Of a DNA stretch of 64,000 bases, positions 26,190 through 48,151 are shown piece after piece. Position 1 is the stretch's first letter; each line of letters opens with the position of its first letter. Position numbers and translations under genes: made by a program. This stretch comes from Candidatus Saccharimonadia bacterium (GTDB lineage: Bacteria > Patescibacteriota > Saccharimonadia > UBA4664). Location: assembly GCA_035544015.1 (NCBI GenBank), contig DATKIP010000064.1, forward strand, positions 2,131 to 66,130, written 5' to 3'. The notes beneath the pieces are model-generated. The model was not told the origin of the DNA, made no database searches, and saw only the letters and a program-made list of their open reading frames with translations.

Positions 26190-27097
26190 TCCAGGTCCTG
26201 CTTAATAATTTCCTTGCGCAGCCACATGCGGTCGGCCCTGGCTACATCGCCCTCAAACTTCACGCCCAGCAAGTCCGATACCCAGGCCTGCACGGCTGGG
26301 TCTTGGCAGACGAAGTAGCTGCTGCCCTCATTGACACTCACCACATTCACGAACCATTCGGGCTTCATCGCCGCCAGCTCCTGCTCGATGGTGGCCTGGT
26401 GCCGGCTCACCACTTCAGCCGCATCCCACACCACCAGCTGGCCAACGCCAAGCGGGCGCGGAAACGTCTTGAAGGTCAGAATTTTGGAGTCATTACGAAT
26501 AGACGTCGTGGCATCGGCCAAGATCGCTTCCTGGCACTCGGTGAAGTATTGAGCGGTCCAGCCGTCGGGAATGTCGGCGTGGGCGACTAGCGCTCTATAG
26601 GCGGTCCGATCACGCTCGGTCGTAACGTGCGCCTTAAAGTTCAAGGTGTTGTCCAAAATGCCCGATACCAGCAGCTTCGCGCTCGTTTCGCTCATGGTAT
26701 CGGCCAACCCTGCCGCCACCCACCGCTCGTAAACTAGCGTGCAAGCCGCACCGATAAACTCAATATGGGCCTTATCGCCAATTCGCTCCTGCCAATATTG
26801 CTCGAAACCTGGGTGATGGTCGATCACCTCGTCCACTCTGGCCAGATCCACAAACCGGTCGAAATGCTCCGGGTCGGAGATGTCGATGAGCGTAAACATG
26901 TCTGTGTCGTTGGGCGTGTAGGTGGTATTGAGCGGCGCCCGCCACGACCGCACCGTCTGACTGATGCTTTCGTTCCAGACCGCCGTGCTAACGGCCTGCG
27001 CCTGCTCGCCCCGAGCTTGCAGGAGTTCAGCATAAGCAATCGCCCCCGCATAGGCGTCTATATCCATATACCGCGACCCGGCAGTAACAATCCTCAT
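26186..27097 (-). CDS. DHH-family phosphoesterase (NrnA/pAp-phosphatase-like)
   Basis: DHH motif (IDHHPG) and DHHA1-like C-terminus; start placed at MRIVTAG. Confidence 0.7.
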   Translation of the reverse strand: MRIVTAGSRYMDIDAYAGAIAYAELLQARGEQAQAVSTAVWNESISQTVRSWRAPLNTTYTPNDTDMFTLIDISDPEHFDRFVDLARVDEVIDHHPGFEQYWQERIGDKAHIEFIGAACTLVYERWVAAGLADTMSETSAKLLVSGILDNTLNFKAHVTTERDRTAYRALVAHADIPDGWTAQYFTECQEAILADATTSIRNDSKILTFKTFPRPLGVGQLVVWDAAEVVSRHQATIEQELAAMKPEWFVNVVSVNEGSSYFVCQDPAVQAWVSDLLGVKFEGDVARADRMWLRKEIIKQDLE

Positions 27098-27211
27098 GCG
27101 TAGAACAATATCATAATCGTATAATGCGTAAAATATATACAAAAACAGAGAAACCGACCAAAAATGTATAGATATTTGACATTTTGTATAGTTTTAGTGC
27201 AAAATCTAAGC

Positions 27212-27943
27212 ATGCCTAAAAACAACAATTTAGTTCCGATAAGTGAGGCCGCAAAGTATTTGGGTGTTACGGTTATGACCTTACGGCGCTGGGATGAGTC
27301 AGGGAAGCTGCCGGCTCTTAAGAGTCCCGGCGGTCACCGATACTATCACCGAGACGCGCTTGAACGTTATAACGCCGAGCTTTTTAGATTGGCCCAAATA
27401 TGGGCAGCAAGTGACGTGGCGCCAAATCTCCCGCCGGCAGACTACTCCGATACGCAGGATAGATTTAGGGCCAGGTTAGACCGAATGGCCAATCTTATAA
27501 ACCAAAACCCCGAAACATCCGTAGCGGCATCTCTAGTTACTGCGATGGCAGGAGAAATAGGTAATAATTCATTCGACCATAACTTAGGAAATTGGCCCGA
27601 TATCCCAGGCCTATTTTTCAGTTACGATCTAAATAGGCGCATCGTTGTACTAGCCGACCGAGGGGTGGGAATTAAAGCGACATTATTGAGGGTGCGTCCA
27701 GAAATGAAAGATGATATTGAAGCACTAACGGTTGCTATGACAGAGTTTGTATCTGGCAGAACCCCCGAACAAAGAGGAAATGGCCTGAAGTTTGTGCGGA
27801 CAGTAGCGACACAGAATCCAATAGGAATTGCTTTGCAGTCGGGTGTAGCAATCGCCACAATTGAGAAGGAAGGTCCTAAAGAACTAAGAGTAAGGCTTGC
27901 AGATCACTTCATTCGCGGCACATTAGCTAGAATTGAGTATTAA
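27212..27943 (+). CDS. MerR-type HTH fused to a GHKL (RsbW/SpoIIAB-like) ATPase/kinase domain
   Basis: MerR/excisionase-like HTH ISEAAKYLGVTVMTLRRWDESG. N-box EIGNNSFDH, G1 DRGVGI, G2 GNGLKF. Low-GC, AT-rich upstream region. Confidence 0.6.
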   Translation: MPKNNNLVPISEAAKYLGVTVMTLRRWDESGKLPALKSPGGHRYYHRDALERYNAELFRLAQIWAASDVAPNLPPADYSDTQDRFRARLDRMANLINQNPETSVAASLVTAMAGEIGNNSFDHNLGNWPDIPGLFFSYDLNRRIVVLADRGVGIKATLLRVRPEMKDDIEALTVAMTEFVSGRTPEQRGNGLKFVRTVATQNPIGIALQSGVAIATIEKEGPKELRVRLADHFIRGTLARIEY

Positions 27944-27945
27944 TT

Positions 27946-28212
27946 ATGAGAATCGAACTAAAAAAATTCGGAGATGTTCTTACTTCCCGCCCAGCGGGCA
28001 AAGAGGCCTTTGCGGCAATACTCCCAACATTAAACCCCAACGAAAGCAATGTAGAGATCGACTTTAGTAGCGTTATTTCTCTTGCACCCTCTTGGGCTGA
28101 CGAATTCTTCAGAGCATTAGAGGAACTCTATGGGGATCGAGTTATCTATATGCCAAGTGATAATCCGTCTGTAAAAGCTACGCTGGCTATTATTCGTGAT
28201 CAAGCAAAATAG
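27946..28212 (+). CDS. STAS-like domain protein (DUF4325 family), partner of the upstream GHKL gene
   Basis: 88 aa with an EIDFSSV motif (conserved DF of DUF4325); 2-bp spacing from the upstream gene. Confidence 0.55.
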   Translation: MRIELKKFGDVLTSRPAGKEAFAAILPTLNPNESNVEIDFSSVISLAPSWADEFFRALEELYGDRVIYMPSDNPSVKATLAIIRDQAK

Positions 28213-28292
28213 GGTCCTACAAAACCGTACTTCGGGCTCTCCGAATCGACTTATGCCAATGTAAATAGTCCGACTCCAAGGCGTGGAGGACG

Positions 28293-28766
28293 TCAAAGCA
28301 GCACTGGCCTCCTGACGGTGATTGCTTGGCCGCTTGAGGTATCGACGCCGTCAGCGCGCAAACTAATTTCTTTAGGGGCAGCCCTATAAATGCGCCATGA
28401 CGCCTCGCCCGTCACCTCGGCCGGGCTGCCAATAGTAAATTTATCCGGTTGTGGCCGGGTATGCAGCGCCGCAATAGCAATATCAATGTCGGCCGGGCTC
28501 TCCAGCTCGACTGCCTCGGCATCAAAGTAAACACCCCCAGAATTTGTCGGCGGCTCTTGGCCAAAAATAACTATCCCCACTTGTGACCTGGCGCGCACGT
28601 TGCTGGAGTGGCGGGCAGCTTTGGCCGAAACCCAGTACAAGTTGAAGTCCTTATCGGGGGCAAAGAATAATGTCGAAGCCCATGGCTTACCGTCGGCATC
28701 CGCCGTCGCTAGCGTCATGTGCACGTTTGTCTCGATCAAGCGCTTGGCTTTTTCGGCATCATTCAT
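28293..28766 (-). CDS. Pyridoxamine 5'-phosphate oxidase-like FMN-binding split-barrel protein
   Basis: PNPOx-like N-terminal motif TNVHMTLATADADGKPW. Confidence 0.65.
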   Translation of the reverse strand: MNDAEKAKRLIETNVHMTLATADADGKPWASTLFFAPDKDFNLYWVSAKAARHSSNVRARSQVGIVIFGQEPPTNSGGVYFDAEAVELESPADIDIAIAALHTRPQPDKFTIGSPAEVTGEASWRIYRAAPKEISLRADGVDTSSGQAITVRRPVLL

Positions 28767-28772
28767 AGTGGG

Positions 28773-29675
28773 CTAGAAATCCGCAATCACGAGCTTTTTC
28801 ATTTCCATCATATGAGCAAAGGCTTTCGGTCGCCGCATGAGCTCGTCCACATTCGCCGGCGCTACCTGCCAGCTCACCCCAAACTGGTCTTTGCACCAGC
28901 CACATTGCTCCGCCTCCGGCACGGTCGAGAGTTTGCCCCAAAAGTAATCAATTTCAGCTTGGTCCTCGCAGGCCACCGATAGCGATACCGCCTCGTTAAA
29001 AGTAAAATCCTGCCCCACGCCCGAGTCCATGGCAGCAAACCATTGGTCTCCCAGCCTGAAATCAGCGAACATGAGCGACCCGGCTTTAGCCGGCCCCGTG
29101 TCTTTGTCGTAGCGCGCCATCGTACCGGTCTGCGAGTCCTTAAAGACCGACGTATACAACTTGATAGCCTCCTCGGCCTGGTTGACGTGGCCCGCGCCAA
29201 ACATCAAAGCGGGGACAATAAACGGACGTGGCTCGCCCTCCGGCTTCGCCAGGCTCAGCTGCCAGGTGAGTCCGTAGCGATCCCTCACCCAGCCGTAACG
29301 CTTGCTGTACGGGTATTCGTCGAGCGCCATGAGGGCTTCGCCGCCCTCGATCAGCTTGCCCCATAGCTCGTCGAGATGCTCAGCCGCCGCATCGTCGCGC
29401 GACGGGTCAAAGTTCACCATAAACGAAATCGACGGGTTGAATTTAAACTCAGACCCGGCATTAATGGCCACAAACTCCTGGCCACTCAGCTCAAATGCTA
29501 TCGTGAGCACCTGTCCGGCTAAGTCTTTCTGAAAGTCGGCCAGCCCGTCTTCCGCGCTCTCGGGGTAGTGGGTGGTGTCGGTGATGCGGCTATCCGGAAC
29601 CGCCGATACATAAAAATCCACTGCCTGCTTGGCATTCCCGCCAAACCATAAATTGGGGGTAATTTTTTGTGCCAT
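28773..29675 (-). CDS. Tandem VOC/glyoxalase-fold protein (PhnB / 3-demethylubiquinone-9 methyltransferase-domain family)
   Basis: Two repeats of the ITPNLWF...FYV and W...DQFGVSWQ pattern; start at MAQKITPNLWF. Confidence 0.65.
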   Translation of the reverse strand: MAQKITPNLWFGGNAKQAVDFYVSAVPDSRITDTTHYPESAEDGLADFQKDLAGQVLTIAFELSGQEFVAINAGSEFKFNPSISFMVNFDPSRDDAAAEHLDELWGKLIEGGEALMALDEYPYSKRYGWVRDRYGLTWQLSLAKPEGEPRPFIVPALMFGAGHVNQAEEAIKLYTSVFKDSQTGTMARYDKDTGPAKAGSLMFADFRLGDQWFAAMDSGVGQDFTFNEAVSLSVACEDQAEIDYFWGKLSTVPEAEQCGWCKDQFGVSWQVAPANVDELMRRPKAFAHMMEMKKLVIADF

Positions 29676-29820
29676 GGCGCGCCCTCTATTAATGCTGTCA
29701 CTACCGTTATACCAGCAATGCCGGGCGCGCGCATGTACGAGCAAGACAAAAACAGGCGCTCATGCCCGAACTGGTGGACTAGCCGCTCTGGGGTCCCCAC
29801 GGCAGTTGTATAATTACGCC

Positions 29821-30183
29821 ATGGAAGACGCCCAGGCCCATAAGCTAACTACAAAAATTAAAGCCAACATGATTGCCGCCACGAAGGCTCGAAAGAGCGT
29901 TGAAGTGAGTGCGCTTCGGTCTCTACTGGCTAGGATATCTAATGCAGAGGCAGTGCCGGCGGATCAAAGCCATATAGCATCCAGCAGCATCGCGGGGGCC
30001 AGCGTCGGTGTAGGATCGACCGAAGCGCCGAGAAAGCAACTTTCCTACATGGATGTGCAAGAGATAATCCAGGCTGAAATTCAAGAAATTCAGGCGGCCA
30101 AACAGCGGCTAGATGGGTCAAGCGACTATGTAGCCGAGCTTGACCAGAAAATCGTCATAGTGAGTGCCTATCTGGAAAAATAA
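29821..30183 (+). CDS. GatB/YqeY domain protein
   Basis: MEDAQAHKLTTKIKANMIAATKARKSVEVSALRSLLARISNAE matches the YqeY family. TATAAT lies 8 bp upstream of the ATG, so it may be leaderless. Confidence 0.7.
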   Translation: MEDAQAHKLTTKIKANMIAATKARKSVEVSALRSLLARISNAEAVPADQSHIASSSIAGASVGVGSTEAPRKQLSYMDVQEIIQAEIQEIQAAKQRLDGSSDYVAELDQKIVIVSAYLEK

Positions 30184-30206
30184 CCCGCTCGGCATAGCAA
30201 GCGGCG

Positions 30207-30998
30207 TTAGAAGTGAGCCAGTACGTCCTCAACGCATTCTGCTAATCTGGTTAGAGTTGGGATTAGCGGCTCGGAGTGAACGATGCCATCAACATTAAAA
30301 GCGAGCTGAATATCAAACTGTGTATCATCGTGCGACGTGTCGCCTGAAGGAGTCGAGAAAAGTACGACTCCTTCGGATATCACCACTTTATCGTCTGGGA
30401 CTAACCCAATCTGCACGGATGGGGTATCCTGCGTCCACTCCATGCCTGGCTCATCAGCAAATGCTTTGCGGAAGTGAGCGCCAAGGTCTACCACCACAGC
30501 CTGATGATTGGCCGAGATAGATAGCATGAAATGGTGTTTATCGGTGATATCCAGCTTGTGAATCAACCAAAGCGAGTTATTCCCGCCCTCGTATGGGGCA
30601 AGGCCAGTAATCGTAGCGATATGCTCGGAAGACATTCCTCGGGTTTTTTGTAAGACGCCGTTAGCGTATGATTCGGCATCCTTAAATATCGGAAACTCGG
30701 TGGCTCGCCCAGGATCGACACCATTGGACAAGATAAGGGCGTAGTTTAAATGATCGAGCGCAGTACGCAAATTATGTATCACATCACCGGCTTGCGTTTG
30801 CAGTTCTGCCGGGATTTCCCGAACCGAAACCACCTGCCATTCTCGTAACCCTGTTTTTTTGTTATCAACAATGGCTACGTCATAGGGTCTGCTACCGTAA
30901 AATAACTGAGTCGTATTAGTCATCTCGCCCAATAGAATTTTTGCCCGCTCAAGCTTATGTCGGGCACTATTCAGGTTTGGCTGTGCGCTTGCTTCCAT
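30207..30998 (-). CDS. Hypothetical protein with HEPN-like Rx4H motif, in a low-GC patch
   Basis: NLRTALDHLNYAL contains R-x4-H in a helical context; no other recognisable domain. Confidence 0.4.
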   Translation of the reverse strand: MEASAQPNLNSARHKLERAKILLGEMTNTTQLFYGSRPYDVAIVDNKKTGLREWQVVSVREIPAELQTQAGDVIHNLRTALDHLNYALILSNGVDPGRATEFPIFKDAESYANGVLQKTRGMSSEHIATITGLAPYEGGNNSLWLIHKLDITDKHHFMLSISANHQAVVVDLGAHFRKAFADEPGMEWTQDTPSVQIGLVPDDKVVISEGVVLFSTPSGDTSHDDTQFDIQLAFNVDGIVHSEPLIPTLTRLAECVEDVLAHF

Positions 30999-31062
30999 GA
31001 GGGTCCTTATCTGTCTCTACGGTGTATCAGATATTACCACTACGAGAGATTAATTGAAGTCC

Positions 31063-31092
31063 ATCAAAAAGAGGCCCACAAAGGCCTCTTTT
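31063..31092. terminator. Bidirectional intrinsic terminator AAAAAGAGGCC-cacaa-aGGCCTCTTTTG
   Basis: GC stem with A and T tracts on both sides; seen in sequence. Confidence 0.55.
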
Positions 31093-31095
31093 GTC

Positions 31096-31114
31096 ATATA
31101 ATTCCTGGCTCCGA
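31096..31114. repeat. Direct repeat (attR-like): CA[T]ATAATTCCTGGCTCCG, duplicating the 3' end of tRNA-Asn
   Basis: A 16-bp perfect match (19 bp with 1 mismatch) to 32343-32361, which spans the 3' acceptor/CCA end of tRNA-Asn. Confidence 0.6.
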
Positions 31115-31149
31115 GTCGTATCGGAAGTCAGAACTGCTTTGAGAAGCGA

Positions 31150-31295
31150 AACCTAACAAAGAACCCAACATAGGGCACTAGGATGCTGACATAGAGAAAT
31201 AGCTTATGCCTAACAAAGAACCTAACATACAACTAACATAGAGTTGACATAGAACCTAACATAGAGTAAAATAGAACCTAACATAGAATTAGAGG
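31150..31295. repeat. Iteron-like array of direct repeats (core AACATAGA / GAACCTAACATAGA, at least 7 copies)
   Basis: Examples: CCTAACAAAGAACC[C/T]AACATA x2; GAACCTAACATAGA x2; ...gacatagag...; ...taacatagag.... Seen directly upstream of the wHTH gene. Confidence 0.55.
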
Positions 31296-31300
31296 AAGAT

Positions 31301-32335
31301 ATGGGCTTAAAAGAACAAATCTTAGAAGTAGCCGAGGCTAAAAAGCACTTTAAGACGGCCGACGTAATGGCCGCCATTAACGATGGCGCCGCTCGTTCGT
31401 ATGTCAGTACAGTAATTAACTCAATGGTATCCGATGGCGCCCTAGTTAGGGAAGGCTCGGGCAGATGGTCTATTTATGCCTTGCCAAAATACGCAGACAC
31501 ACTAGGCAAGAGAATAAAAAAGCGCTTGGCTAACGTCAGCCTTGAAGAATATGAAGTCTTTGACGCTATTAAGAAAGAAAAGCCTTTCTTAAATACCCTC
31601 AGAGAGAATATTCAAAGCGTTCTTGCATATGCTTTCTCAGAAATGCTTAACAATGCCATTGAGCATTCGGGAAGTAAAAACATTGAAGTTGAAATCCAGC
31701 AGCAAAAAGATAACCTCACCTTTGTCGTGAGAGATTTCGGCGTAGGAGTGTTTAGAAATGTTATGGCTAAGCGAGGGCTTGCTTCGGAACTCGAAGCCAT
31801 ACAAGACCTTCTAAAAGGAAAAACTACCACCGCACCTCAAGCCCATTCGGGTGAGGGCATTTTCTTTACTTCGAAAGCCGGCGACCTCTTTGTGCTTGAA
31901 AGCTATGGGCTGAGACTGCGCATTGATAATGTTATTAATGACGTATTTGTAGAGGAAGTTAAGGCTGACGTTCGAGGGACACAAGTTACATTTCAAATCA
32001 GCACAAAATCCAAGCGCCATCTGAGCGAAGTCTTTGCAGGATATCAGGTTGACCCGGAAGAACCTGCCTTCGACCAGACAGAAGTAAAGATTAGACTTTA
32101 CACAATGGGGACAATATATGTCTCAAGGTCTCAGGCTCGAAGAGTCTTAGTAGGACTCGATAAATTCAGAAGAATTATTTTGGACTTTGATAAGGTGCCA
32201 ACGGTCGGACAGGCCTTCTCTGATGAGATATTTCGCGTATTCCAATCCAGACATCCAGAAATCGAAATCGCCCCGGTCAATATGAATGACGCCGTCAAAT
32301 TTATGGTCGGTCGTGTAGATAAACCAACAAAATAA
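31301..32335 (+). CDS. Winged-HTH + GHKL ATPase/kinase + STAS-like (DUF4325) fusion protein
   Basis: N-terminal wHTH (VMAAINDGAARSYVSTVINSMVSDGALVRE). N-box EMLNNAIEHS, G1 DFGVGV, G2 GEGIFF. C-terminal DUF4325-like ILDFDKV. Low GC (~42%). Confidence 0.6.
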   Translation: MGLKEQILEVAEAKKHFKTADVMAAINDGAARSYVSTVINSMVSDGALVREGSGRWSIYALPKYADTLGKRIKKRLANVSLEEYEVFDAIKKEKPFLNTLRENIQSVLAYAFSEMLNNAIEHSGSKNIEVEIQQQKDNLTFVVRDFGVGVFRNVMAKRGLASELEAIQDLLKGKTTTAPQAHSGEGIFFTSKAGDLFVLESYGLRLRIDNVINDVFVEEVKADVRGTQVTFQISTKSKRHLSEVFAGYQVDPEEPAFDQTEVKIRLYTMGTIYVSRSQARRVLVGLDKFRRIILDFDKVPTVGQAFSDEIFRVFQSRHPEIEIAPVNMNDAVKFMVGRVDKPTK

Positions 32336-32351
32336 CGGCTTTGTAAAGCCG
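32328..32351. terminator. Bidirectional terminator hairpin AACGGCTTT-gtaa-AGCCGTT with flanking A/T
   Basis: Lies between the convergent CDS and tRNA-Asn. Confidence 0.5.
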
Positions 32352-32426
32352 TTATTCATCAAATAATTCCTGGCTCCGGAGGTCGGGCTCGAACCGACGA
32401 CCAATTCGTTAACAGCGAACTGCTCT
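32352..32426 (-). tRNA. tRNA-Asn (anticodon GTT) with encoded CCA
   Basis: Manual fold of TCCGGAGTAGCTCAGTGGTAGAGCAGTTCGCTGTTAACGAATTGGTCGTCGGTTCGAGCCCGACCTCCGGAGCCA: 7-bp acceptor stem, D-arm GCTC/GAGC, anticodon loop CTGTTAA, T-arm GTCGG/CCGAC with TTCGAGC loop. Confidence 0.85.
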
Positions 32427-32606
32427 ACCACTGAGCTACTCCGGATCACAATGTGGGCTGGCCCCATCGGGTGATACTACGAGATTATAGCGATGCGACT
32501 CGGCCTGGTCAATCACTGCGCAAAAAAGCGGCCAGAGATTACCTCTAGCCGCCGGGGGTGTGGAGACCGTTCGCTCCCATGCCCCCATCTCGTCTTGAAC
32601 GCGCGG

Positions 32607-33014: not shown

Positions 33015-33157
33015 ATTGCTCACCCTCTCGGTCAAGGTTCAGGACAAACCGCATTATAACATAAAACAAAGATAAATACTAGGATTCGACCCCACCAGAG
33101 TCCTGTATTATTTGGGATTTTCCCTATATAATGGGCAAACTTACTGAGGAGGTCGAA

Positions 33158-36100
33158 GTGAACCGCTTGAAACGTGCCGCTGCAATTGCCCTGATCGCCC
33201 TACTAACCCTATCCGGTCTCACGCTGCCCGTGCCCGGCGCACACGCCTCCACCCCCACCGGCTCCTCGATCAACACCCACACCGTCATGGTCGACGATCA
33301 AAGCAAAATCGTGTCGTGGGTGCCCAACCAAGACCAGGCCTATGCCACCGTGGCCGCCAGCGCCTGGAATTTCCTCCTTAATAACGTCCCCACCGACGAG
33401 CACGGCCTGCCTGGCTTCTACACCCACTCCTACTTCAACCCCGACACGCGTGAGCTGTCGTTCAACCCCCACAACCCGGCCGGCACCAATGCCATGCTCA
33501 CCGAATCCGCGCTCCAATACTACCAATATTCCGGTGACGCCCGCGTGCTCACGCTGGTCGAAAATTCCGTCACATACCACCTGGATCACGGCATGACTGC
33601 TGCCGGCGACAATTGGTCAAACGTACCCTACGCCAGCAGCGATTACGGCAACACCACCTACGCCGGCGCTAGCCGCGGCAATTCCGACGGCGTCGGTGAC
33701 GGCGTGGGCGTGATCGAGCCCGACAAAGTCGGCGAGCTCGGCGTCGCCTTCGTGCAGCTGTACAAGATCACCGGCGAGCAGAAGTACCTCACCGCCGCCA
33801 TCAATGCTGCCAATGCCCTCGCCAGCCACGTGCGCGCCGGCAACGCCACCCAGTCGCCGTGGCCCTTCCGCGTGAAGGCCTCCGACAACACCATCAAAGA
33901 GCAATACACCGCCCACACCATCAGCCCCATCGAGCTGCTCGACAATCTCATTGCGCTCGGTCAGGGCAACACCGCCTCGTATCAGTCCGCCCGCACCACC
34001 GCCTGGAACTGGCTCATGCAGTACCCTATGCAAAGCAACAACTGGAGCACCTACTTCGAGGACGTCGATTTCCATCCCGGCGCCAATAACAACACCCAAA
34101 TGAACTCCATAATGACCGCCCGCTACCTCTTGCAGCACCCCGAGTACGACGCCAACTGGGAGACGCACGTGCGCGGGCTGATCGCCTGGACCGAGCAAAA
34201 CTTTGCCGTACCCGCTTTCGGCGCCAACACCATCCAGGAACAGGCCGATTTTGCCCACCCCATGGGTAGCCACACCAGCCGCTACTGCGATGTGAACGCC
34301 TTGCTCTACCAGCGCACCGGCGACCTCGCTGCCAAAGAAAAAGCCTACCGCGCCTGCAACTGGGCCACCTACATGGCCCGCGACAACGGCGTGGTCATTG
34401 ACGGCCCCGAGATCAACAACGCCTGGTTCACCGACGGCTACGGCGACTTCATCCGCGGCATGATGGTAGCCATGGGCGGTTCGCCCGACTTCGCCCCCGC
34501 CGGCCAAAACCACCTGCTCCAAACCAGCTCCGTGGTCACGAACGTCACGTACGGCCCGTCGCAGCTCAGCTACTCCGCCTTTGAGGCCGCCGGCACCGAG
34601 GTCATCAAAGTCGCCAGCGCCCCCACCGGCGTCGCGATCAATGGCGTTAGCCTCGCTCAGCGCAGCGACCTGGCCGCCGAGGGCTGGACCTACGACGCCG
34701 CTCAAAGCGTGGTACGCGTGCGCCGCGATACGGGCAAAAACGTCACCATCGCACTCAACGGTACCCCCACCAACCTGCTTCCCAACGTGAGCCTCAGCAC
34801 CGGCGCCACCACCTACACCGCACCGGCCAGCTTCAACGTCACGGCCGCCGCCAGCGACCCCGACGGCACCATCACCAAGGTCGAATTCTACCAAAACGGC
34901 GCCCTCGTGAGCACTGTCACCACCACGCCTTATACCTTTGCCGCCGCCGCTCTACCCGCCGGCAGCTACGCCTTCAGCGCTCGCGCCTACGACAACCAAA
35001 ACGCCAGTAGCAACTCCAATACCGTTAGCGTCACCGTCAACGGTGCCTCCCAGGGTGGTACCTGGACCGGCGCCGACATTGGCACCACCGGCGTAGCCGG
35101 CTCCACTGCTGCCGCGGGCAGCGCCATTACCGTGAAGGGTGGCGGCACCGATATCTGGGGCACTGCCGACTCGTTCCAATTCGGCTACCAGCAAATGACC
35201 GGCGACGGCGAGATCAAAGCCCGCGTCGTCACGCAGCAAAACACCGACCCCTGGGCGCTAGCCGGCGTCATGATCCGCGACACCCTCGCCCCCGGCGCCA
35301 AAGAGACGCTAGCCGCCATGACCCCCGGCCACGGTGCAGCCTTTGACTACCGCACCGCCACCGGTGGCAGCACCACTTACGTCAACGGCGCCGCGGCCAC
35401 CGTGCCATATTGGATGCGCCTCGTGCGCGCCGGCACCACCATTACCGCCTCCAAATCCACCAACGGCACCGCCTGGACCAGCATGGGCAGTGCTACCGTT
35501 AGCCTCGGCACCACCGCCTACGTTGGCCTGGCCGTCACCTCGCACAACCCGTCCGCGCTCGGCACCGCCACCTTCGACAACGTCAGCTTCACCGGCCAGT
35601 CCACTGCCGACACCACCCCGCCCGTCATCTCGGGCATAAGCGTCTCCGGCGTGAACCCCAACGGCGCCACGGTCAGTTGGACCACGAGCGAGCCCGCCAC
35701 CTCGCAGATCGAATTCGGTCCCACCACCGCGTATGGCAGCTCCACCACGCTCAACAGCAGCCTGGCCACTGCTCACACCCAGGTAGTTCCCGACCTGGCC
35801 TCCGCCACCACTTACCACTACCGCGTCAAATCCGCCGACGCCGCGGCCAACCTGGCCACCTCGGCCGACAACACCTTTACCACCCCTACTCCGGCCGACA
35901 CCCAGGCCCCGTCGGCCCCCACCGGCCTCACCGCTACGGCCATTAGCTTTACCCAGGCCAATCTAAACTGGACCGCCGCTACCGACAACGTCGCCGTCAC
36001 CGGCTACCAGGTCTTCCGCGACGGCGTCCAAATCGGCACCGCCACGGGCACCACCTTTAGCGACGCCGCCCTCACCTTCAACACGAATTACACCTACACC

Positions 36101-37909
36101 GTGCGCGCCGTCGACGCGGCCGGCAACGTTTCGCTCGATTCTAATGCGGCCGCTATCACCACCCCCACGCCCGACACCCAGGCTCCCAGCGTACCCACCG
36201 GCCTCACCGCCAGCGTCACCCTGCCCAACCAAGTTGACCTCAGCTGGACCGCCGCCGCCGACGACACCGCTGTCACAAAATACCTCGTGAAGCGAAACGG
36301 CGCCGTCATAGCTCAACCCACCGGCACCACGTTCTCCGACACCACCGCCACCGGCGGTAGCACCTACAGCTACGTCGTGGCCGCCGCCGACGCCGCCGGC
36401 AACACATCGGCCAGCTCCGACCCAGCCACCGCCACTGTTCCCGACACCACCGCCCCCACCGCGCCCGTGAGCCTCACCGCCACGGCCGTTGCCGGGCCGC
36501 AAGTCAACCTATCCTGGGGCGCCTCCAGCGATGCCGTCGGTGTCACCAGCTACCTCATCTTCCGCGACGGCCAACCCCTCGACACCGCCACCGGCACGAG
36601 CTACTCGGACGCTAATGTAGTAACCGGCACCACCTACAATTACACGGTCGAAGCCACCGATGCCGCCGGTAACCTCTCCGCTGCCTCCAACACCGCCACC
36701 ATTACACCTCCCGTGCCCGACACCCAAGCGCCCACCGCGCCCACCGGTCTCACCGCCACGGCTGTCAGCTTCACCCAGGTGAACCTCGCCTGGACCGCCG
36801 CTACCGACAACATCGCCGTCACCGGCTACCAAATCTTCCGCGACGGCGCCCAGGTCGGCACCACCACTGGCACCACCTATGCCGACACCGCCCTGCTAGC
36901 CGGCAACAGCTACGCTTACACCGTGCGTGCCACCGATGCCGCCGGCAACCTTTCGCCCGCGTCCAACACCGCCACGGCCACCACGCCCACGCCCGACACC
37001 ACGCCGCCGTCGGCCCCCAGCGCCCTCACCGCCACCGCGCCCACCGGCACGCAGGTCAACCTCAGCTGGACCGCCAGCACCGACAACGTCGGCGTCACTC
37101 GCTACAATGTCCTGCGCGGCGGAACCCAAATCGGCACCACTACGAGCACGAGCTATGCCGACACCACGGTCGCCGCCGGCACCAGCTACTCCTACACTGT
37201 GACTGCCCAAGACGCCGCCGGCAACGTGAGCGCCGCGTCCAACACCGCCACCGTCACCACGCCGGCCCCGGTCGTCACGCTCGCCGTCGACACCCAAGTG
37301 GCCGTCCACACCACCACGGCCGCTACCACCATCACCTCGCCGGCCTTCACCACCGCCGGCCCAGGCGAGCTCCTCGTAGCCTTCGTCTCCTCCGACGGCC
37401 CCAGCGGCGCCTCCACCTTTAGCTCCGTCACCACCACCGGCCTCACCTGGACCCTGCGCAAGCGCCAAAACACCCAGGCCGGCACCTCCGAGATCTGGAC
37501 CGCCCCGGCCGCCGCCAAGCTCACGAATGCCACGGCCAAAGCCACCCGCACCGGTTCCTACCGCAGCTCCCTCGTCGTCACCGCCTTCAAGGGCGCCGAC
37601 CTCACGACCATCGGCGCCACCGCCGGAGCCAGTGCCGCCACCGGCGCCGCCACTGCCAGCCTCACCACCACCCGCGCGGGTTCCTGGGTCTGGGCCGTTG
37701 GCAACGACTGGGACAACGCCGTCGCCCGCACGGTCGGTACCGCCCAAACCAAAGTCGATGAGTTCCTCACGAGCACCGGCGACACCCTCTGGGTCCAGCG
37801 CCGCACCGCCGTCACCCCGGCCGCCGGCACCGTTGTTACCATCAACGACACCGCCCCCACCGCCGACCGCTACAACCTGGCGCTCATCGAGATTCTGCCC
37901 GCTCCATAG
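33158..37909 (+). CDS. Giant secreted multidomain protein: (alpha/alpha)-toroid-like N-terminal domain, Ig-like domain, concanavalin-like lectin domain, 6 FN3 repeats, and C-terminal beta-rich domain
   Basis: Signal peptide after the GTG start (GAGGAGG SD); the ORF track starts at ATG 33131, right after TATATAAT. FN3 repeats ...TGLTAT..L.WTAATDNVAVTGYQ.FRDG.... The lectin-like domain is GGTWTGADIG...GTATFDNVSFTG. Confidence 0.75.
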   Translation: MNRLKRAAAIALIALLTLSGLTLPVPGAHASTPTGSSINTHTVMVDDQSKIVSWVPNQDQAYATVAASAWNFLLNNVPTDEHGLPGFYTHSYFNPDTRELSFNPHNPAGTNAMLTESALQYYQYSGDARVLTLVENSVTYHLDHGMTAAGDNWSNVPYASSDYGNTTYAGASRGNSDGVGDGVGVIEPDKVGELGVAFVQLYKITGEQKYLTAAINAANALASHVRAGNATQSPWPFRVKASDNTIKEQYTAHTISPIELLDNLIALGQGNTASYQSARTTAWNWLMQYPMQSNNWSTYFEDVDFHPGANNNTQMNSIMTARYLLQHPEYDANWETHVRGLIAWTEQNFAVPAFGANTIQEQADFAHPMGSHTSRYCDVNALLYQRTGDLAAKEKAYRACNWATYMARDNGVVIDGPEINNAWFTDGYGDFIRGMMVAMGGSPDFAPAGQNHLLQTSSVVTNVTYGPSQLSYSAFEAAGTEVIKVASAPTGVAINGVSLAQRSDLAAEGWTYDAAQSVVRVRRDTGKNVTIALNGTPTNLLPNVSLSTGATTYTAPASFNVTAAASDPDGTITKVEFYQNGALVSTVTTTPYTFAAAALPAGSYAFSARAYDNQNASSNSNTVSVTVNGASQGGTWTGADIGTTGVAGSTAAAGSAITVKGGGTDIWGTADSFQFGYQQMTGDGEIKARVVTQQNTDPWALAGVMIRDTLAPGAKETLAAMTPGHGAAFDYRTATGGSTTYVNGAAATVPYWMRLVRAGTTITASKSTNGTAWTSMGSATVSLGTTAYVGLAVTSHNPSALGTATFDNVSFTGQSTADTTPPVISGISVSGVNPNGATVSWTTSEPATSQIEFGPTTAYGSSTTLNSSLATAHTQVVPDLASATTYHYRVKSADAAANLATSADNTFTTPTPADTQAPSAPTGLTATAISFTQANLNWTAATDNVAVTGYQVFRDGVQIGTATGTTFSDAALTFNTNYTYTVRAVDAAGNVSLDSNAAAITTPTPDTQAPSVPTGLTASVTLPNQVDLSWTAAADDTAVTKYLVKRNGAVIAQPTGTTFSDTTATGGSTYSYVVAAADAAGNTSASSDPATATVPDTTAPTAPVSLTATAVAGPQVNLSWGASSDAVGVTSYLIFRDGQPLDTATGTSYSDANVVTGTTYNYTVEATDAAGNLSAASNTATITPPVPDTQAPTAPTGLTATAVSFTQVNLAWTAATDNIAVTGYQIFRDGAQVGTTTGTTYADTALLAGNSYAYTVRATDAAGNLSPASNTATATTPTPDTTPPSAPSALTATAPTGTQVNLSWTASTDNVGVTRYNVLRGGTQIGTTTSTSYADTTVAAGTSYSYTVTAQDAAGNVSAASNTATVTTPAPVVTLAVDTQVAVHTTTAATTITSPAFTTAGPGELLVAFVSSDGPSGASTFSSVTTTGLTWTLRKRQNTQAGTSEIWTAPAAAKLTNATAKATRTGSYRSSLVVTAFKGADLTTIGATAGASAATGAATASLTTTRAGSWVWAVGNDWDNAVARTVGTAQTKVDEFLTSTGDTLWVQRRTAVTPAAGTVVTINDTAPTADRYNLALIEILPAP
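35900..37270 (+). repeat. Tandem array of five near-identical FN3-encoding repeats (~270 bp each), plus one diverged copy upstream
   Basis: Recurrent DNA blocks CCGACACCCA(G/A)GC.CC...ACCGGCCTCACCGC and protein blocks DTQAPSAPTGLTATA...; it is intragenic. Confidence 0.7.
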
Positions 37910-38478: not shown

Positions 38479-38623
38479 CAACGGTAAAGCGGAGGTTGGC
38501 TAGCTCGACGCAATCTGACGCCTGACAACCATCGGCCCAGGATGCTAACGACTAGGTAGAGTTCGTCAGTCAGGAGAGCTAGCCAACCGCAGCAAATATC
38601 ATGCGCCGGTGTATAGTAGGGGC

Positions 38624-39802
38624 ATGTTCGAGAGAACTCTCTTCGATAAACTCCTCCGCCGCCTCAAATCTGGCGGTGTCACGGTCCATTATTGGGATGG
38701 TACCACGACCCATTATGGCCCTGCCAAGCCCTACTTTGAGCTTATCCTCCATCACCCCCGAGCGGTGCGGGCAATCATGCGGCAGTTCACGCTCGGCTTT
38801 GGGGAAGCCTATATGGACGGCGCGATCGACATCGCCGGGGATATCACCCAAATCGGCCGGCTGATCGCCGAAAACCGGTCCGCCTTCGCCGCGCTCACCA
38901 AATTGAGCAATCTGCGCCGCCGCCAGCCCAACCGGCCCGGGCGCCAGCGCCACCTCATCCAGCACCACTACGATCTCGGAAACGATTTTTACCGTCTCTG
39001 GCTCGACAAATCCATGACCTACTCCTGCGCCTATTTCAGGCACGCTGATGATACACTTGAGGCTGCCCAAAGCCAAAAAGTCGAACACATTTTGCGTAAA
39101 CTGCAGCTCAGCCCAGGCCAAACCTTGCTCGACATTGGCTGCGGCTGGGGCCAATTGCTCATCGCCGCGGCCCAGAAGACCCCTGGCCTCCGCGGCCGCG
39201 GCATTACGCTGAGCGCCGAGCAATTCAAGCTTGCCACTGAGCGCGTCGCTGCCGCCGGGCTCAAAGATCGCATCACGATCGAGCTCATTAGCTACCACGA
39301 CCTAGCGGCCCGCGACCTCAAGTTCGACCGCATCGTATCGGTCGGAATGTACGAGCACGTGGGCTACCGCAACCATGCCGGCTACTTCCGCGCTGTCAAA
39401 CAGATGCTCGCGCCAAACGGCCTGAGCGTGCTGCACACCATCTCCACCGAGCATCTCCAGCCCAACGACGCCTGGATCGACAAATACATCTTCCCCGGCG
39501 GCTTCCTGCCCACGGTGGCCGAAACCACCAAGCTCATGGAAGCTCACGGCTTCGAGCTCCAAGATTACGAAAACCTGCGCTACCACTACGCCCTCACCCT
39601 CGACGAGTGGCTTCGGCGTTTCGAATCCCACCGCGACGAGGTCAAAGCCATGTACGACGAACGCTTTTACCGCATGTGGCGCCTCTACCTCGGAGGCTCC
39701 ATCGCCGGCTTCCGCTACTCCGACCTCACGCTGTCGCAATTCGTCATGACGCCCGGCCCCAACCCCCACCTCCCCCTCACCCGCGAGTTCCTCTACCAGT
39801 AG
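38624..39802 (+). CDS. Cyclopropane-fatty-acyl-phospholipid synthase family SAM-methyltransferase
   Basis: LLDIGCGWGQL motif I and CFA-synthase-like flanks; alternative GTG start at 38609. Confidence 0.8.
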   Translation: MFERTLFDKLLRRLKSGGVTVHYWDGTTTHYGPAKPYFELILHHPRAVRAIMRQFTLGFGEAYMDGAIDIAGDITQIGRLIAENRSAFAALTKLSNLRRRQPNRPGRQRHLIQHHYDLGNDFYRLWLDKSMTYSCAYFRHADDTLEAAQSQKVEHILRKLQLSPGQTLLDIGCGWGQLLIAAAQKTPGLRGRGITLSAEQFKLATERVAAAGLKDRITIELISYHDLAARDLKFDRIVSVGMYEHVGYRNHAGYFRAVKQMLAPNGLSVLHTISTEHLQPNDAWIDKYIFPGGFLPTVAETTKLMEAHGFELQDYENLRYHYALTLDEWLRRFESHRDEVKAMYDERFYRMWRLYLGGSIAGFRYSDLTLSQFVMTPGPNPHLPLTREFLYQ

Positions 39803-39993
39803 CAACATAGGGGTGCAGTGGGGTGGCGCGGAGGCAAACTGGCGCGACGCCGAAGACGCCAGACAACCACCGCTCCCACAATGCCAAACTCAGGTCGAGT
39901 TCGTCGCCCAGGAGCGCCAGTTTGCCGCAGCCCACCGCCTGCGGCCGTCCTCAATTCAGCGCAATCTCAGCCAAACCAGCGTACAATGCCCCC

Positions 39994-40677
39994 ATGAGAA
40001 TCCTAGTCGTAGAAGACGAGCACAAAATCGCCGGCGCCATCAAGCGGGGCCTCGAGCAGGAGTCGTACGCCGTCGACGCCGTGTACGACGGCGATGAGGG
40101 CCTCTCGAGCGCTCTCACCGACGAGTACGACGTTATCATCCTCGACCGCATGCTCCCCGGCCTGCTCGACGGCGTCGAGATATGCAAAGAGGTCCGCGCC
40201 GCCGGTATCCGCACGCCCATCCTCATGCTCACCGCCAAGGACAAAATCTCCGACCGCGTCGAGGGCCTTGGTTCCGGCGCCGATGATTACCTCGTAAAGC
40301 CCTTTGCCTTCGAGGAGCTCCTAGCCCGCATTCGTGCCCTGCTGCGCCGGCCCCAAGATCACGTCGGCAACGTGCTCGAGCTCGCCGATCTCAGTCTCGA
40401 TACCCAAACCTACGAGGTCAAACGCGACGGCCGTCGCATTCAGCTGTCGCAGCGCGAATACGCTCTGCTCGAATACCTCTTGCGCAACCAAAACCGCATT
40501 CTCTCCAAAACCAACATCATCAGCCACGTTTGGGATTACGATGCCGATATCCTCCCCAACACCCTAGAGGTGTATATTGGATATCTGCGGGGCAAAATTG
40601 AGCGCCCGTTCAAAGGTCCAGAACTAATCCACACCGTTCGAGGCTTCGGCTACAAGCTCTCCACTTCAAGCGAATGA
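39994..40677 (+). CDS. OmpR-family response regulator
   Basis: MRILVVEDE receiver and C-terminal winged-helix (TVRGFGYKL); start at the ATG with a conserved N-terminus, not the ORF-track start. Confidence 0.9.
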   Translation: MRILVVEDEHKIAGAIKRGLEQESYAVDAVYDGDEGLSSALTDEYDVIILDRMLPGLLDGVEICKEVRAAGIRTPILMLTAKDKISDRVEGLGSGADDYLVKPFAFEELLARIRALLRRPQDHVGNVLELADLSLDTQTYEVKRDGRRIQLSQREYALLEYLLRNQNRILSKTNIISHVWDYDADILPNTLEVYIGYLRGKIERPFKGPELIHTVRGFGYKLSTSSE

Positions 40678-46443: not shown

Positions 46444-46482
46444 CGGTCAAAAAAAGAGCCCCTCGGGGCTCTTTTTTAGTGG
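46444..46482. terminator. Intrinsic bidirectional terminator (A7-GAGCCC-ctcg-GGGCTC-T6), copy 1 of a 39-bp exact direct repeat
   Basis: CGGTCAAAAAAAGAGCCCCTCGGGGCTCTTTTTTAGTGG is identical to 47587-47625. Confidence 0.7.
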
Positions 46483-46540
46483 ATTCAATCAGATGCATGA
46501 CATTGTGGTAATATCATACCCCTGAAGGTAAACTAGAATT

Positions 46541-47560
46541 ATGAAGTTTGTGCGACCCAAGAAGGTTGTATTTTGCAACAACAAAGGCGGAGTGGGCAAA
46601 ACCACTCTAGCATTTCATATTGCCGTTGAATTTTCCAAGAAAGGCTACAAGACTGCACTCATCGACCTCGACCCCCAATGTAACCTGACACTTCAGGCGC
46701 TGAGCCACACATTTTACGAAGATAATCTGTTTACCGAGAATCAGAGAACGGTTTATGACGTGCTCAAGCCAAAAATAGACGGTAGCGGCGATATAGACGC
46801 CTCTATTAATCTCACCCATGTGCGGGAGAATCTCTACATTTTACCCGGCGATATCCAACTTTCGCTTTTCGAGAATATACTGATTGCCAGCTATAATGAA
46901 GCCGCCGCAGGCAACCCGCGAGGGTACTCGGACACGAGCGCCATTGATCGCTACCTAAACGAAGTCGGCGCACGCGAAAAAGTCGATATCTTCATTATCG
47001 ATACCTCCCCGAGCTTAGGGGTTCTAAACCGAGTAATTTTCCTGGGGGCGGAATACTTCGTGGTTCCCGTGACTCCTGATAGCTACAGCGTCCAAGGTAT
47101 AAAAAACCTCGGCAGTGTTTTTGAGATATGGAAAAAGCAATGGAACAATACCGCCAAAGCAGCGGTAGTCGCAGGAAGTACGCCCAGCAATCAGGTCCTC
47201 AAGGGTGACGCCCTCTTTATCGGCTATATCTTGAACTCCTTCAATACATACGACAAGAAGATTGTTAAACGACAGCGGGATTGGACAGAAAACATCCCCG
47301 TAGAGGTCAAACAATATCTATCCGAAAAGCACGGCAGAAATGGGCTTGTAGAAAGGAGCTGGAGTACGCCACTTGGCTCGCTGCAAGATTATGGGCAGTT
47401 GCCTGCAATCTCTATGGAAAACCATTTGGCGATTCAGGAATTTGACCGTGCTAAGGTCCCCGAGCTCAATCTTAAGGGCACCAAGGAGCTACAAGAAAAA
47501 GCCGTCATCGAGATCGACGCCGTGAGTGATAGAATAATCAAGGTACTCGAAAGCTACTAG
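46541..47560 (+). CDS. ParA/MinD-family P-loop ATPase (orphan), low GC
   Basis: Deviant Walker A NNKGGVGKTT; IDLDPQ; ~47% GC against a ~65% genome background. Confidence 0.8.
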   Translation: MKFVRPKKVVFCNNKGGVGKTTLAFHIAVEFSKKGYKTALIDLDPQCNLTLQALSHTFYEDNLFTENQRTVYDVLKPKIDGSGDIDASINLTHVRENLYILPGDIQLSLFENILIASYNEAAAGNPRGYSDTSAIDRYLNEVGAREKVDIFIIDTSPSLGVLNRVIFLGAEYFVVPVTPDSYSVQGIKNLGSVFEIWKKQWNNTAKAAVVAGSTPSNQVLKGDALFIGYILNSFNTYDKKIVKRQRDWTENIPVEVKQYLSEKHGRNGLVERSWSTPLGSLQDYGQLPAISMENHLAIQEFDRAKVPELNLKGTKELQEKAVIEIDAVSDRIIKVLESY

Positions 47561-47586
47561 AATCCTACTCCGCTGCGAACACACTT

Positions 47587-47625
47587 CGGTCAAAAAAAGA
47601 GCCCCTCGGGGCTCTTTTTTAGTGG
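47587..47625. terminator. Intrinsic bidirectional terminator, copy 2 of the 39-bp exact direct repeat
   Basis: Identical to 46444-46482. Confidence 0.7.
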
Positions 47626-47638
47626 GCGTGCGGCTGAA

Positions 47639-48151
47639 TTACTTCTGGCCGCTGGCCTTGTAGTCCGCGATGGCCTTGGCCACTTTGCCGTCATTCTTCA
47701 GGTTTTCCCAGAACAACACTTGCTGACGGCTCACGTACATTACATCCTCAGGTCCGTGGAGCTCGCCACCCAGCTTTGCCAGCGAGACCTGCTGGTTGTT
47801 GGCGGCCGCCGCGGCCGAGGTATCTTTGGGCTGCACCGTTTGCTGCACTTGGAGGTAGTAGATGTCGGTACACTTTACGTAGCTGTTATCGACTTTGGTG
47901 AGTTTACAGAAATACACCTGGCCGTTCGTCAAAAACACTGCCTGGTACTGCTTGCCTTTAACGCCGCTGTCGGCCGTCGCTGCGGCGTAGGCTTTGCTGG
48001 CAAACCATCCCAGCACCGTTAGGCCCACTAACACGAGCACTATGGCTACTACTTTGCTCAACATCCCCCCGCCACCACCGCTCTTGCGGGAGACCGCCGG
48101 CACATCGGCCAATCCGTTATCGGCTACCTGTCCTTGTCGTCGTACGTCCAT
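47639..48151 (-). CDS. Membrane-anchored hypothetical protein
   Basis: Start MDVRRQG; Gly-rich segment then TM VVAIVLVLVGLTVLGWFA; no recognisable domain. Confidence 0.45.
   Translation of the reverse strand: MDVRRQGQVADNGLADVPAVSRKSGGGGGMLSKVVAIVLVLVGLTVLGWFASKAYAAATADSGVKGKQYQAVFLTNGQVYFCKLTKVDNSYVKCTDIYYLQVQQTVQPKDTSAAAAANNQQVSLAKLGGELHGPEDVMYVSRQQVLFWENLKNDGKVAKAIADYKASGQK

Follow-up and report, generated by a model that had tools for sequence, protein, structure and literature searches.

How do bacteria with tiny genomes gain a gene? Members of the candidate phyla radiation (CPR, or Patescibacteria) have few recognizable mobile elements, and gene gain in these bacteria is poorly understood. 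The question is raised by a locus in a stretch of DNA from a Candidatus Saccharimonadia bacterium (a metagenome-assembled genome, GenBank assembly GCA_035544015.1, contig DATKIP010000064.1, positions 2,131 to 66,130 of the forward strand). We will refer to this entire 64-kb stretch as the window, and our coordinates are relative to its start. Near 47 kb, a gene for an orphan ParA-like ATPase lies between two exact copies of a 39-bp terminator. An earlier note on this DNA had proposed either an insertion that duplicated its target, the terminator, or else a cassette that carried its own copy of the terminator. We show that a 1104-bp foreign cassette was inserted into a native terminator, between the convergent genes for an RRM protein and for a protein of 170 amino acids (aa), and that the insertion left a perfect 39-bp duplication on the hairpin.

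Insertion of a single gene into a native terminator

The 39-mer CGGTCAAAAAAAGAGCCCCTCGGGGCTCTTTTTTAGTGG is found at 46444-46482 and, as the earlier note had reported, recurs base for base after the ParA-like gene, at 47587-47625, which is 1143 bp farther on. By direct reading, the identity breaks off sharply at either end of both copies. Allowing up to 3 mismatches, the window contains no other match, and 100 shuffles gave none. When folded, the 39-mer forms a 12-bp GC-rich hairpin that is followed by a U-run, on either strand (-19.1 and -17.6 kcal/mol, z ~ -4.2; no shuffle was as good). Because the hairpin and the U-run are present on both strands, we consider the 39-mer to be a bidirectional intrinsic terminator. 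In the middle of the repeat is a 28-nt palindrome (46450-46477), and the 39-mer reaches 6 nt leftward and 5 nt rightward from it, so the duplicated segment is centered on the dyad to within one base.

To see what the site looks like without the gene, we can compare the window to three related lineages that keep the gene order: FtsX, an ABC ATPase, two small proteins, the RRM protein, the convergent gene for the 170-aa protein, a protein of ~270-310 aa, and ATP synthase genes. Their 170-aa proteins are 78-81% identical to the one from the window. In all three lineages, the spacer between the RRM gene and the 170-aa gene is just 60-63 bp, and it holds one orthologous bidirectional terminator of the same design (AAAAAAAGAGCCCCATGGGGCTCTTTTTT, AAAAAAAGAGCCCGTTGGGCTCTTTTTTT, and AAAAAAGAGCCCTTCCGGGCTCTTTTTT). 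In the window, the stop-to-stop spacer is 1208 bp. Subtracting the 1143-bp unit leaves 65 bp, laid out as 13 + 39 + 13 nt, like the spacers of the relatives.

Did the cassette bring the terminator with it? Across 274 fetched loci, we found the core of the terminator only in the orthologous spacer of the relatives and in the source organism's own Logan unitig, and never beside the ParA homologue of any other genome. Because there is a single ortholog at the empty site, and because the core is never adjacent to ParA homologues from other genomes, we infer that the terminator is native to the host locus and was duplicated. For the same reasons, we rejected a cassette-borne terminator; of the two proposals in the earlier note, the duplicated target is the one that agrees with the relatives, and the cassette with its own terminator is disfavored. 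The earlier note had also considered that the 39-mer might be a widespread terminator motif. So far it does not look like one: in the window and in IMG/VR, the two places where we searched for the 39-mer, the only copies are the two in the window.

The gene's composition is also unusual, as the earlier note had suggested. Its GC content is 0.48 (0.56 at third codon positions, or GC3), as compared to 0.57-0.65 (GC3 of 0.72-0.81) for nine flanking genes; the neighbors have a GC content of about 62%. The ParA-like gene is a foreign, single-gene gain. Furthermore, since the duplication copied the hairpin, all three genes have a complete terminator at their ends. The RRM gene is still terminated by copy 1, and copy 2 acts for the new gene on one strand (+) and for the 170-aa gene on the other (-). 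The features of the locus are listed in Table 1.

Table 1. Features of the locus, with positions in the window
Feature	Position	Strand	Evidence or remarks
Upstream host gene: RRM RNA-binding protein, 87 aa	46167..46430	+	Pfam RRM_1 (1.7e-23); position kept in relatives L248-L254
Direct repeat, copy 1	46444..46482		Native bidirectional intrinsic terminator; fold and ortholog in relatives
Gained unit relative to the empty site: 1143 bp (1104-bp insert plus one 39-bp copy)	46483..47625	+	Spacer arithmetic
5' part of the insert, 58 bp	46483..46540	+	Putative extended -10 and ribosome-binding site
Orphan ParA/MinD-class ATPase, 339 aa (HVQ43958.1)	46541..47560	+	Pfam, motifs, and fold
3' tail of the insert, 26 bp	47561..47586	+	Lacks its own terminator
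Direct repeat, copy 2	47587..47625		Identical to copy 1; ends the ParA-like gene (+) and the 170-aa gene (-)
Convergent downstream host gene: conserved Saccharimonadia protein, 170 aa (HVQ43959.1)	47639..48151	-	100% identity match; synteny

The 1104-bp insert comprises a candidate promoter, a ribosome-binding site, and a single open reading frame (ORF). By direct reading, the leader contains TGgTAATAT (46506-46514), which matches the consensus for an extended -10 element, and GAAGG (46524-46528) is ~12 nt upstream of the ATG. A generic promoter scan did not include TGgTAATAT among the sites it listed. Similar elements (TGcTAtAAT-like) are found 7-33 nt upstream of the ATG in several close family members, so the gene appears to travel with its own putative promoter, at least at the level of consensus matches. 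The insert contains no second ORF, no recombinase (the ATPase is its sole ORF), no terminal inverted repeats, and no terminator of its own. Past the stop codon there is just one terminator-like hairpin, and it belongs to copy 2 of the repeat. A search of the surroundings of the locus against Rfam gave nothing meaningful, and no RNA family matched the insert.

A ParA-type ATPase without a partner

The product of the inserted gene matches the Pfam families AAA_31 (E = 2e-32, 113 bits vs. a cut-off of 27) and CbiA (E = 1e-15, 58 bits vs. a cut-off of 25). It has a deviant Walker A motif with the signature lysine (NNKGGVGKTT, residues 13-22), which is invariant in 15 family members, and two further ATPase motifs (DLDPQCN and IIDTSPSLG) that are invariant in the family. 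An AlphaFold (AF2) model of the protein has a predicted TM-score (pTM) of 0.84, and Foldseek gives a probability of 1.00 for similarity to DIP2308, Soj, ParA, McdA, and MinD. In the ranking by fold, DIP2308 (PDB 3pg5) is best, followed by Soj, ParA, McdA, pSM19035 delta, and MinD. These matches place the protein in the ParA/MinD superfamily of ATPases (SIMIBI class, with a deviant Walker A motif).

It does not seem to fit any of the described systems in this superfamily. Its score for the NCBIfam model ParA_partition is 71.3, vs. a cut-off of 180, and its scores for RepA, SopA, and PrgP are also far under the cut-offs; for minD_bact, it scores 26.9 vs. a cut-off of 212.9. As for a ParB-type partner, the insert has just the one ORF and no family of neighboring genes is conserved across the family's loci. 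The parS-like site TGTTTCACGTGAAACA (the only type of parS that we scanned for) has no matches in the window at up to 3 mismatches. These results bear out the description of the protein as an orphan in the earlier note. PADLOC 2.0 gave only matches of P-loop length (residues 5-44), to the candidate models PDC-M28B and PDC-S73, with E ~1e-4. Given the lack of a partner, a site, or sufficient scores, we exclude the ATPase from ParABS, MinCDE, McdAB, and all PADLOC systems. Most likely, it works as a ParA-type, ATP-dependent dimer, and does so without a ParB partner. Judging by where its distant relatives are encoded (see below), we would guess that it has an accessory role. In the literature on orphan ParA proteins in Saccharibacteria, on 3PG5, and on terminator duplication, we found nothing relevant.

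A widespread family in varied contexts

The ATPase belongs to a family of proteins of 336-345 aa with a mean column identity of 71%, whose members are 50-77% identical to the window protein. About 10 clusters (at 50% identity) score above 300 bits, and beyond these, long ParA-like proteins form a continuum (222 clusters at E <= 1e-30). Most members of the family are from CPR bacteria: Saccharimonadia, Kaiser-, Nealson-, Peri-, and Pacebacteria. There are also stray members in metagenome-assembled genomes that are labelled as Margulisiibacteriota, Udaeobacter, Alphaproteobacteria, or Fibrimonadaceae. We found no relatives above 36% identity in IMG/VR, the PLSDB plasmids, or the GenBank phages.

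In nearly every locus that we fetched, the ParA-like gene is single, and its surroundings differ in nearly all of them. For example, the gene may be downstream of a GT4 glycosyltransferase and upstream of a tRNA (locus L001); downstream of a peptidoglycan-binding protein and upstream of a SocA/Panacea module (L003); downstream of dnaA-dnaN (L005 and L198) or of comM (L176 and L178); between groEL and prfB (L255) or between 6PGD and PGI (L263); next to MNT/HepT and recA (L259); or convergent with a Type ISP restriction enzyme (L267). No neighboring family is conserved family-wide: the largest cluster of neighbors includes just 5 loci and reflects the synteny of related genomes. In many members of the closest clade, the GC content of the gene is 5-15 points below that of its flanks, while in most of the relatives at 50-58% identity, it equals that of the flanks.

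We also considered whether the family might have a conserved partner gene, and found none that is family-wide. In five related metagenome loci (L190, L191, L193, L195, and L197), a common ORF of 76-81 aa begins ~55 bp past the stop codon of the ParA-like gene. This could be a lineage-specific partner or else synteny; for the 76-aa ORF downstream of the gene in one sub-lineage, synteny is the probable explanation.

Some of the surroundings might hint at function. Three close family members adjoin toxin-antitoxin or restriction genes. Among more distant relatives, a long ParA-like protein with ~28% identity is encoded between the c2 repressor and gene 24 of P22-like prophages (L266, Salmonella phage ST160, 2998-4071), and another with ~28% identity is encoded on a conjugative Pantoea plasmid, beside Abi, IS110, and Tn3 genes (L265, 3980-4999). 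Surroundings of these kinds are typical of accessory or defense genes. In two divergent genomes, the ParA-like gene is directly past dnaA-dnaN (L005, 1735-6032; L198, 606-4020). This adjacency may hint at a role related to the origin of replication, or it could be a coincidence of insertion.

Flanking duplications across the family

Is the duplication in the window a peculiarity of this locus? For each family locus, we aligned the 400 bp upstream of the gene to the 400 bp downstream. As a control, we slid a virtual gene of 1020 bp along the same loci and the window, for a total of 980 placements. We considered repeats with scores of at least 40 to be strong. Strong flanking direct repeats were found at 4 of the 46 family loci, as compared to 9 of the 980 control placements, and most of those were inside repetitive genes. 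This is about a tenfold enrichment (p ~0.001 by a binomial estimate).

The four loci are the window (39 bp, 100% identity, z = 32), L003 (34 bp, 85% identity), L176 (81 bp, 86% identity, corresponding to the 3' end of comM), and L240 (45 bp, exact, at 2914-2958 and 4012-4056). In L003, the 5' copy is a strong hairpin (z = -5.1). In all four cases, the repeats abut the gene: they end 34-82 bp ahead of the start codon, and begin again 0-42 bp past the stop codon. The four repeats have no length or sequence in common, and the upstream ends of the cassettes are not conserved within the family. Overall, the flanking duplications are real, but they are confined to a minority of the loci. Three further loci from the close clade, as well as L267, have no flanking repeats.

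Two other ideas about the flanks did not hold up. First, L001 has a flanking repeat of 14 bp, whose score of 28 was reached by 7% of the control placements, so we did not count it. Second, terminators are not targeted by the family as a whole: terminator-like hairpins are upstream of the gene in just 4 of 47 loci and downstream in 7 of 47.

We noticed two additional features of these flanks. The 45-bp repeat in L240 is itself similar to the 5' ends of genes in the ParA family, with codons for KFPRTKK that follow a TATAAAT, which suggests that an earlier copy or a remnant of such a gene was present at the same site. And in L001 (6110-6357), there is a tRNA just past the ParA-like gene, and the 20 nt at its 3' end (AATCCAGTTCCCGGAGCCAA) recur 175 bp onward. 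Such a repeat marks either an att site or a very small insert.

The repeat in L176 is the informative one with regard to mechanism. It corresponds to the 3' end of comM, the gene upstream, and the two copies differ at 9 coding positions, of which 7 are third positions, 2 are first positions, and none are second positions. (The changes include CGA to AGG, both of which encode arginine, and TAG to TAA.) A sister contig from the same sample that is 94% identical, L178, has comM and the ParA-like gene in the same place and lacks the downstream fragment of comM. Relative to L178, L176 has an extra 1802 bp (2598-4399, corresponding to the point 2557/2558 in L178), which begins 2 nt past the stop codon of the ParA-like gene. 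This segment begins with the diverged 3' fragment of comM and its terminator, after which come two ORFs, one of 198 aa and one of 255 aa with an HTH-like look. The three alleles of the 3' end of comM (upstream in L176, downstream in L176, and in L178) differ from each other mostly at synonymous positions, so the repeat in L176 joins two alleles, each with a history as coding sequence in a different lineage. These alleles point to recombination of homologous chromosomes that had diverged, in which one joint was imprecise, rather than to the footprint of a transposase. Thus, we rejected the repeat in L176 as a target duplication: it joins diverged comM alleles and is tied to the extra 1.8-kb segment.

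How was the cassette inserted?

We think that the cassette was probably not mobile by itself, that it would have been taken up as DNA, and that it would have been joined to the chromosome, imprecisely, by host or trans-acting functions. We favor recombination or repair by such functions over self-mobilization because the lengths of the repeats vary, the ends of the cassettes are not conserved, there is no recombinase, and most loci are free of repeats. In particular, the varied length and identity of the duplications argue against a dedicated transposase. The joining might occur in at least two ways, either of which can duplicate local sequence. There could be breaks at both flanks of the hairpin, followed by fill-in; or there could be homology-facilitated or illegitimate recombination. 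The same process would place other members of the family singly in unrelated contexts, sometimes with duplications of varied length and identity. The window and L003 differ from the other loci in that the duplicated segment is coextensive with a hairpin. These two loci suggest that a hairpin, extruded or stalled, was broken on both of its flanks and that the breaks were then filled in.

Several observations weigh against this explanation. A perfect 39-bp duplication that is centered on a dyad and has sharp ends would fit a dedicated symmetric enzyme as well, and direct reading of the junctions in the window finds no microhomology. Across the family, both strong flanking repeats and terminator-like hairpins are found at only a few loci (see above). 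The promoter is just a match to a consensus. We found no empty site from the same species, so the insertion could be older than it looks. Finally, the repeats could have recombined in the relatives, with loss of the gene; this fits poorly, since the composition is foreign and the repeats are perfectly identical.

The first alternative is that the unit is an att-flanked element without an integrase (a CIME-like satellite), that it was integrated by a tyrosine or serine recombinase encoded at another place in the genome or on a helper element, and that the 39-mer is the core of attL and attR. Direct repeats that match at 39/39 positions do bound the unit exactly. The window also contains a second low-GC gene (31301-32335) with a 16-nt exact repeat over the 3' end of tRNA-Asn, which is a classical location for att; the 20-nt repeat of the tRNA's 3' end in L001 is beside a ParA-like gene; and the imperfect repeats of L003 and L176 resemble att arms. 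However, there is no integrase in the element, nor among the 13 neighboring or island ORFs in our scan, which was not exhaustive. Also, the loci do not share a repeat sequence and the ends of the cassettes are not conserved, so a site-specific enzyme would need a new site each time, and L176 and L178 are accounted for by recombination of homologous chromosomes. We consider the att explanation to be unlikely.

A more speculative idea is that there is an undescribed trans-acting route of gene gain in the Saccharimonadia, and perhaps throughout the CPR bacteria, in which minimal cassettes (a promoter and an ORF) are put at hairpins and at the 3' ends of tRNAs by a symmetric staggered cleavage that duplicates the structure that is cut. 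If true, this would explain both the 39-bp duplication and the 16-bp duplication at tRNA-Asn in the same window. It would also be the chromosomal counterpart of phage morons, with the ParA-like family among the commonest cargoes. We view this as quite unlikely.

Another alternative is the shuffling of mini-circles, as for the PeSLs of T4-type phages: two copies of a terminator recombine, and the resulting circle (the gene and one terminator) needs a single crossover to re-enter at a homologous terminator, so that the repeats are regenerated. The topology is the same as for ORFan192, with two PeSLs in phage RB49 and one in phi1 (PMC2839356). At k=31, the Logan assembly of the locus falls into separate unitigs that are broken inside the 39-bp repeat, which does not discriminate between any of the models. 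In the de Bruijn graph from Logan (SRR8863102), the unitig with the ParA-like gene exits and re-enters the repeat (L006 and L007), which is compatible with a circle and does not prove it. On the other hand, there are just two copies of the terminator per 64 kb, and the relatives' terminators differ in the loop and the flanks, so a circle from another species would not yield 39/39 identity. The shuffling also needs a prior pair of repeats and other homologous terminators, neither of which we saw, and 39 bp is short for RecA-dependent exchange. And it leaves the origin of the first terminator-gene-terminator arrangement unexplained. We think that this is very unlikely.

Alternatively, the gene might be ancestral and lost from the relatives by deletion between the terminators, or the cassette might have carried a look-alike terminator. 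Deletion between direct repeats is easy, and a single loss would be enough if the three relatives form one clade. But the GC3 of the gene is far below that of its neighbors, the repeats are 100% identical, and the nearest homologues, at up to 77% identity, are in unrelated contexts and in genomes with lower GC content. Also, the single terminator of the relatives is an ortholog of the one here, which is absent next to ParA homologues elsewhere. These scenarios are highly improbable. Lastly, we give almost no credence to an assembly artefact, with a separate molecule that has the gene and the same 39-mer being threaded into the chromosome: the k=31 unitigs do break inside the repeat, but the ParA unitig is connected to the same 39-mer at either end, so the alternative would be a 1143-bp circle without replication functions. 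In addition, ordinary reads can easily span 39 bp, and the repeat is resolved in the deposited 72.8-kb contig.

Other features of the window

The second low-GC insert with a single gene (31301-32335, + strand) encodes a 344-aa protein with HATPase_c and STAS-like DUF4325 domains. The gene has a GC content of 0.44 and a GC3 of 0.43. It is flanked by a 16-nt exact repeat, ATAATTCCTGGCTCCG, at 31098-31113 and 32363-32378, or 1265 bp apart (34 nt at 79% identity), and the right copy overlaps the 3' end of tRNA-Asn (32371-32445, - strand). This insert (31080-32378) has its own terminator and no integrase. Immediately upstream of the gene, at 31154-31291, are four copies of a motif of ~20-25 nt (TAACATAGAACCTAACATAG-like), which may be operator or promoter repeats.

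The insert is part of a block of low GC content (27000-32400; 0.42-0.53, vs. 0.60 for the window) that adjoins tRNA-Asn. The block also encodes a 259-aa MerR/HTH_17 protein (whose N-terminus matches mad1 from PADLOC), a PNPOx protein, a 3-dmu-9_3-mt protein, a 262-aa hypothetical protein, and a stand-alone 88-aa DUF4325 protein (27946-28212). The block looks like an accessory island, with no integrase among the ORFs that we scanned. A pair of hairpins at 28000 and 31076 was a candidate for a third duplicated terminator, and we rejected it: the left arm is within the coding sequence for the 88-aa protein. Elsewhere in the window, the control scan gave direct-repeat scores of 57-60 at 33131-37909 (a 1592-aa ORF) and at ~38600-40200, which indicates internal repeats.

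Significance and comparison with known systems

The locus gives a before-and-after view of the gain of a single gene, at the resolution of individual bases, with the neighboring transcription units intact. It also points to a compact and widely exchanged family of ParA-like ATPases that lack partners. If a dedicated mechanism is behind the duplications, then it would give genes a new route by which to flow, in a major part of the diversity of bacteria. If there is no dedicated mechanism, then the locus is still a useful marker of acquisition by a transformation-type process.

Among proteins, the best match to the ATPase, by both sequence (E = 6e-35, over the full length) and fold, is DIP2308 from Corynebacterium diphtheriae. 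The two proteins are 22-25% identical and share the ParA core and a C-terminal helical extension; DIP2308 is itself uncharacterized. With Soj/ParA, McdA, and MinD, the ATPase shares the fold, the deviant Walker A motif with its signature lysine, and motifs of the types DxDPQ and hhhDTPP. Unlike those proteins, it has no ParB, McdB, MinC, or MinE partner and no parS, and it is ~80 residues longer.

Among mobile elements, the locus is unlike an insertion sequence or a transposon: there is no transposase, there are no terminal inverted repeats, and the repeats in the family are of 34, 39, 45, and 81 bp. As in an integrative element of the att type, there are direct repeats at the boundaries, but the element lacks the integrase. 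It is also unlike an integron cassette, in that the 39-mer lacks the GTTRRRY core and is a plain terminator (we did not search systematically for intI).

Homology-facilitated illegitimate recombination during natural transformation, which de Vries and Wackernagel (2002) and Prudhomme (2002) are said to have described, is similar in that foreign DNA is integrated by the host with imprecise joints. L176 and L178 resemble it more closely, with one joint in a homologous gene and the other leaving a duplicated and diverged gene end. In contrast, the insert in the window has no recognizable homologous anchor. In the published cases, the DNA of the recipient was mostly deleted, not duplicated.

Cassettes with PeSLs, a multi-copy family that carries a promoter and for which mini-circles have been demonstrated experimentally (PMC2839356), also have an ORF between two stem-loop terminators where a sister genome has a single copy, and they too are units without a recombinase. 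The window differs in having just two copies of a plain terminator.

This leaves phage morons. According to Hendrix and colleagues, these are reportedly autonomous units, each with a promoter, a gene, and a terminator, that are inserted between conserved genes. The unit in the window likewise has one accessory gene with atypical GC content and an apparent promoter of its own; it is bounded by terminators, lies between conserved genes, and leaves the expression of the neighbors intact. It differs in being in a bacterial chromosome, among housekeeping genes, and in that its terminator is a duplicated host copy. The locus is a clean acquisition of a lone gene and does not represent a new kind of system. 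In its architecture, the insertion would be what a phage moron is, but in a chromosome. What is unusual, as compared to a moron, is that the duplicated bidirectional terminator of the host serves all three genes.

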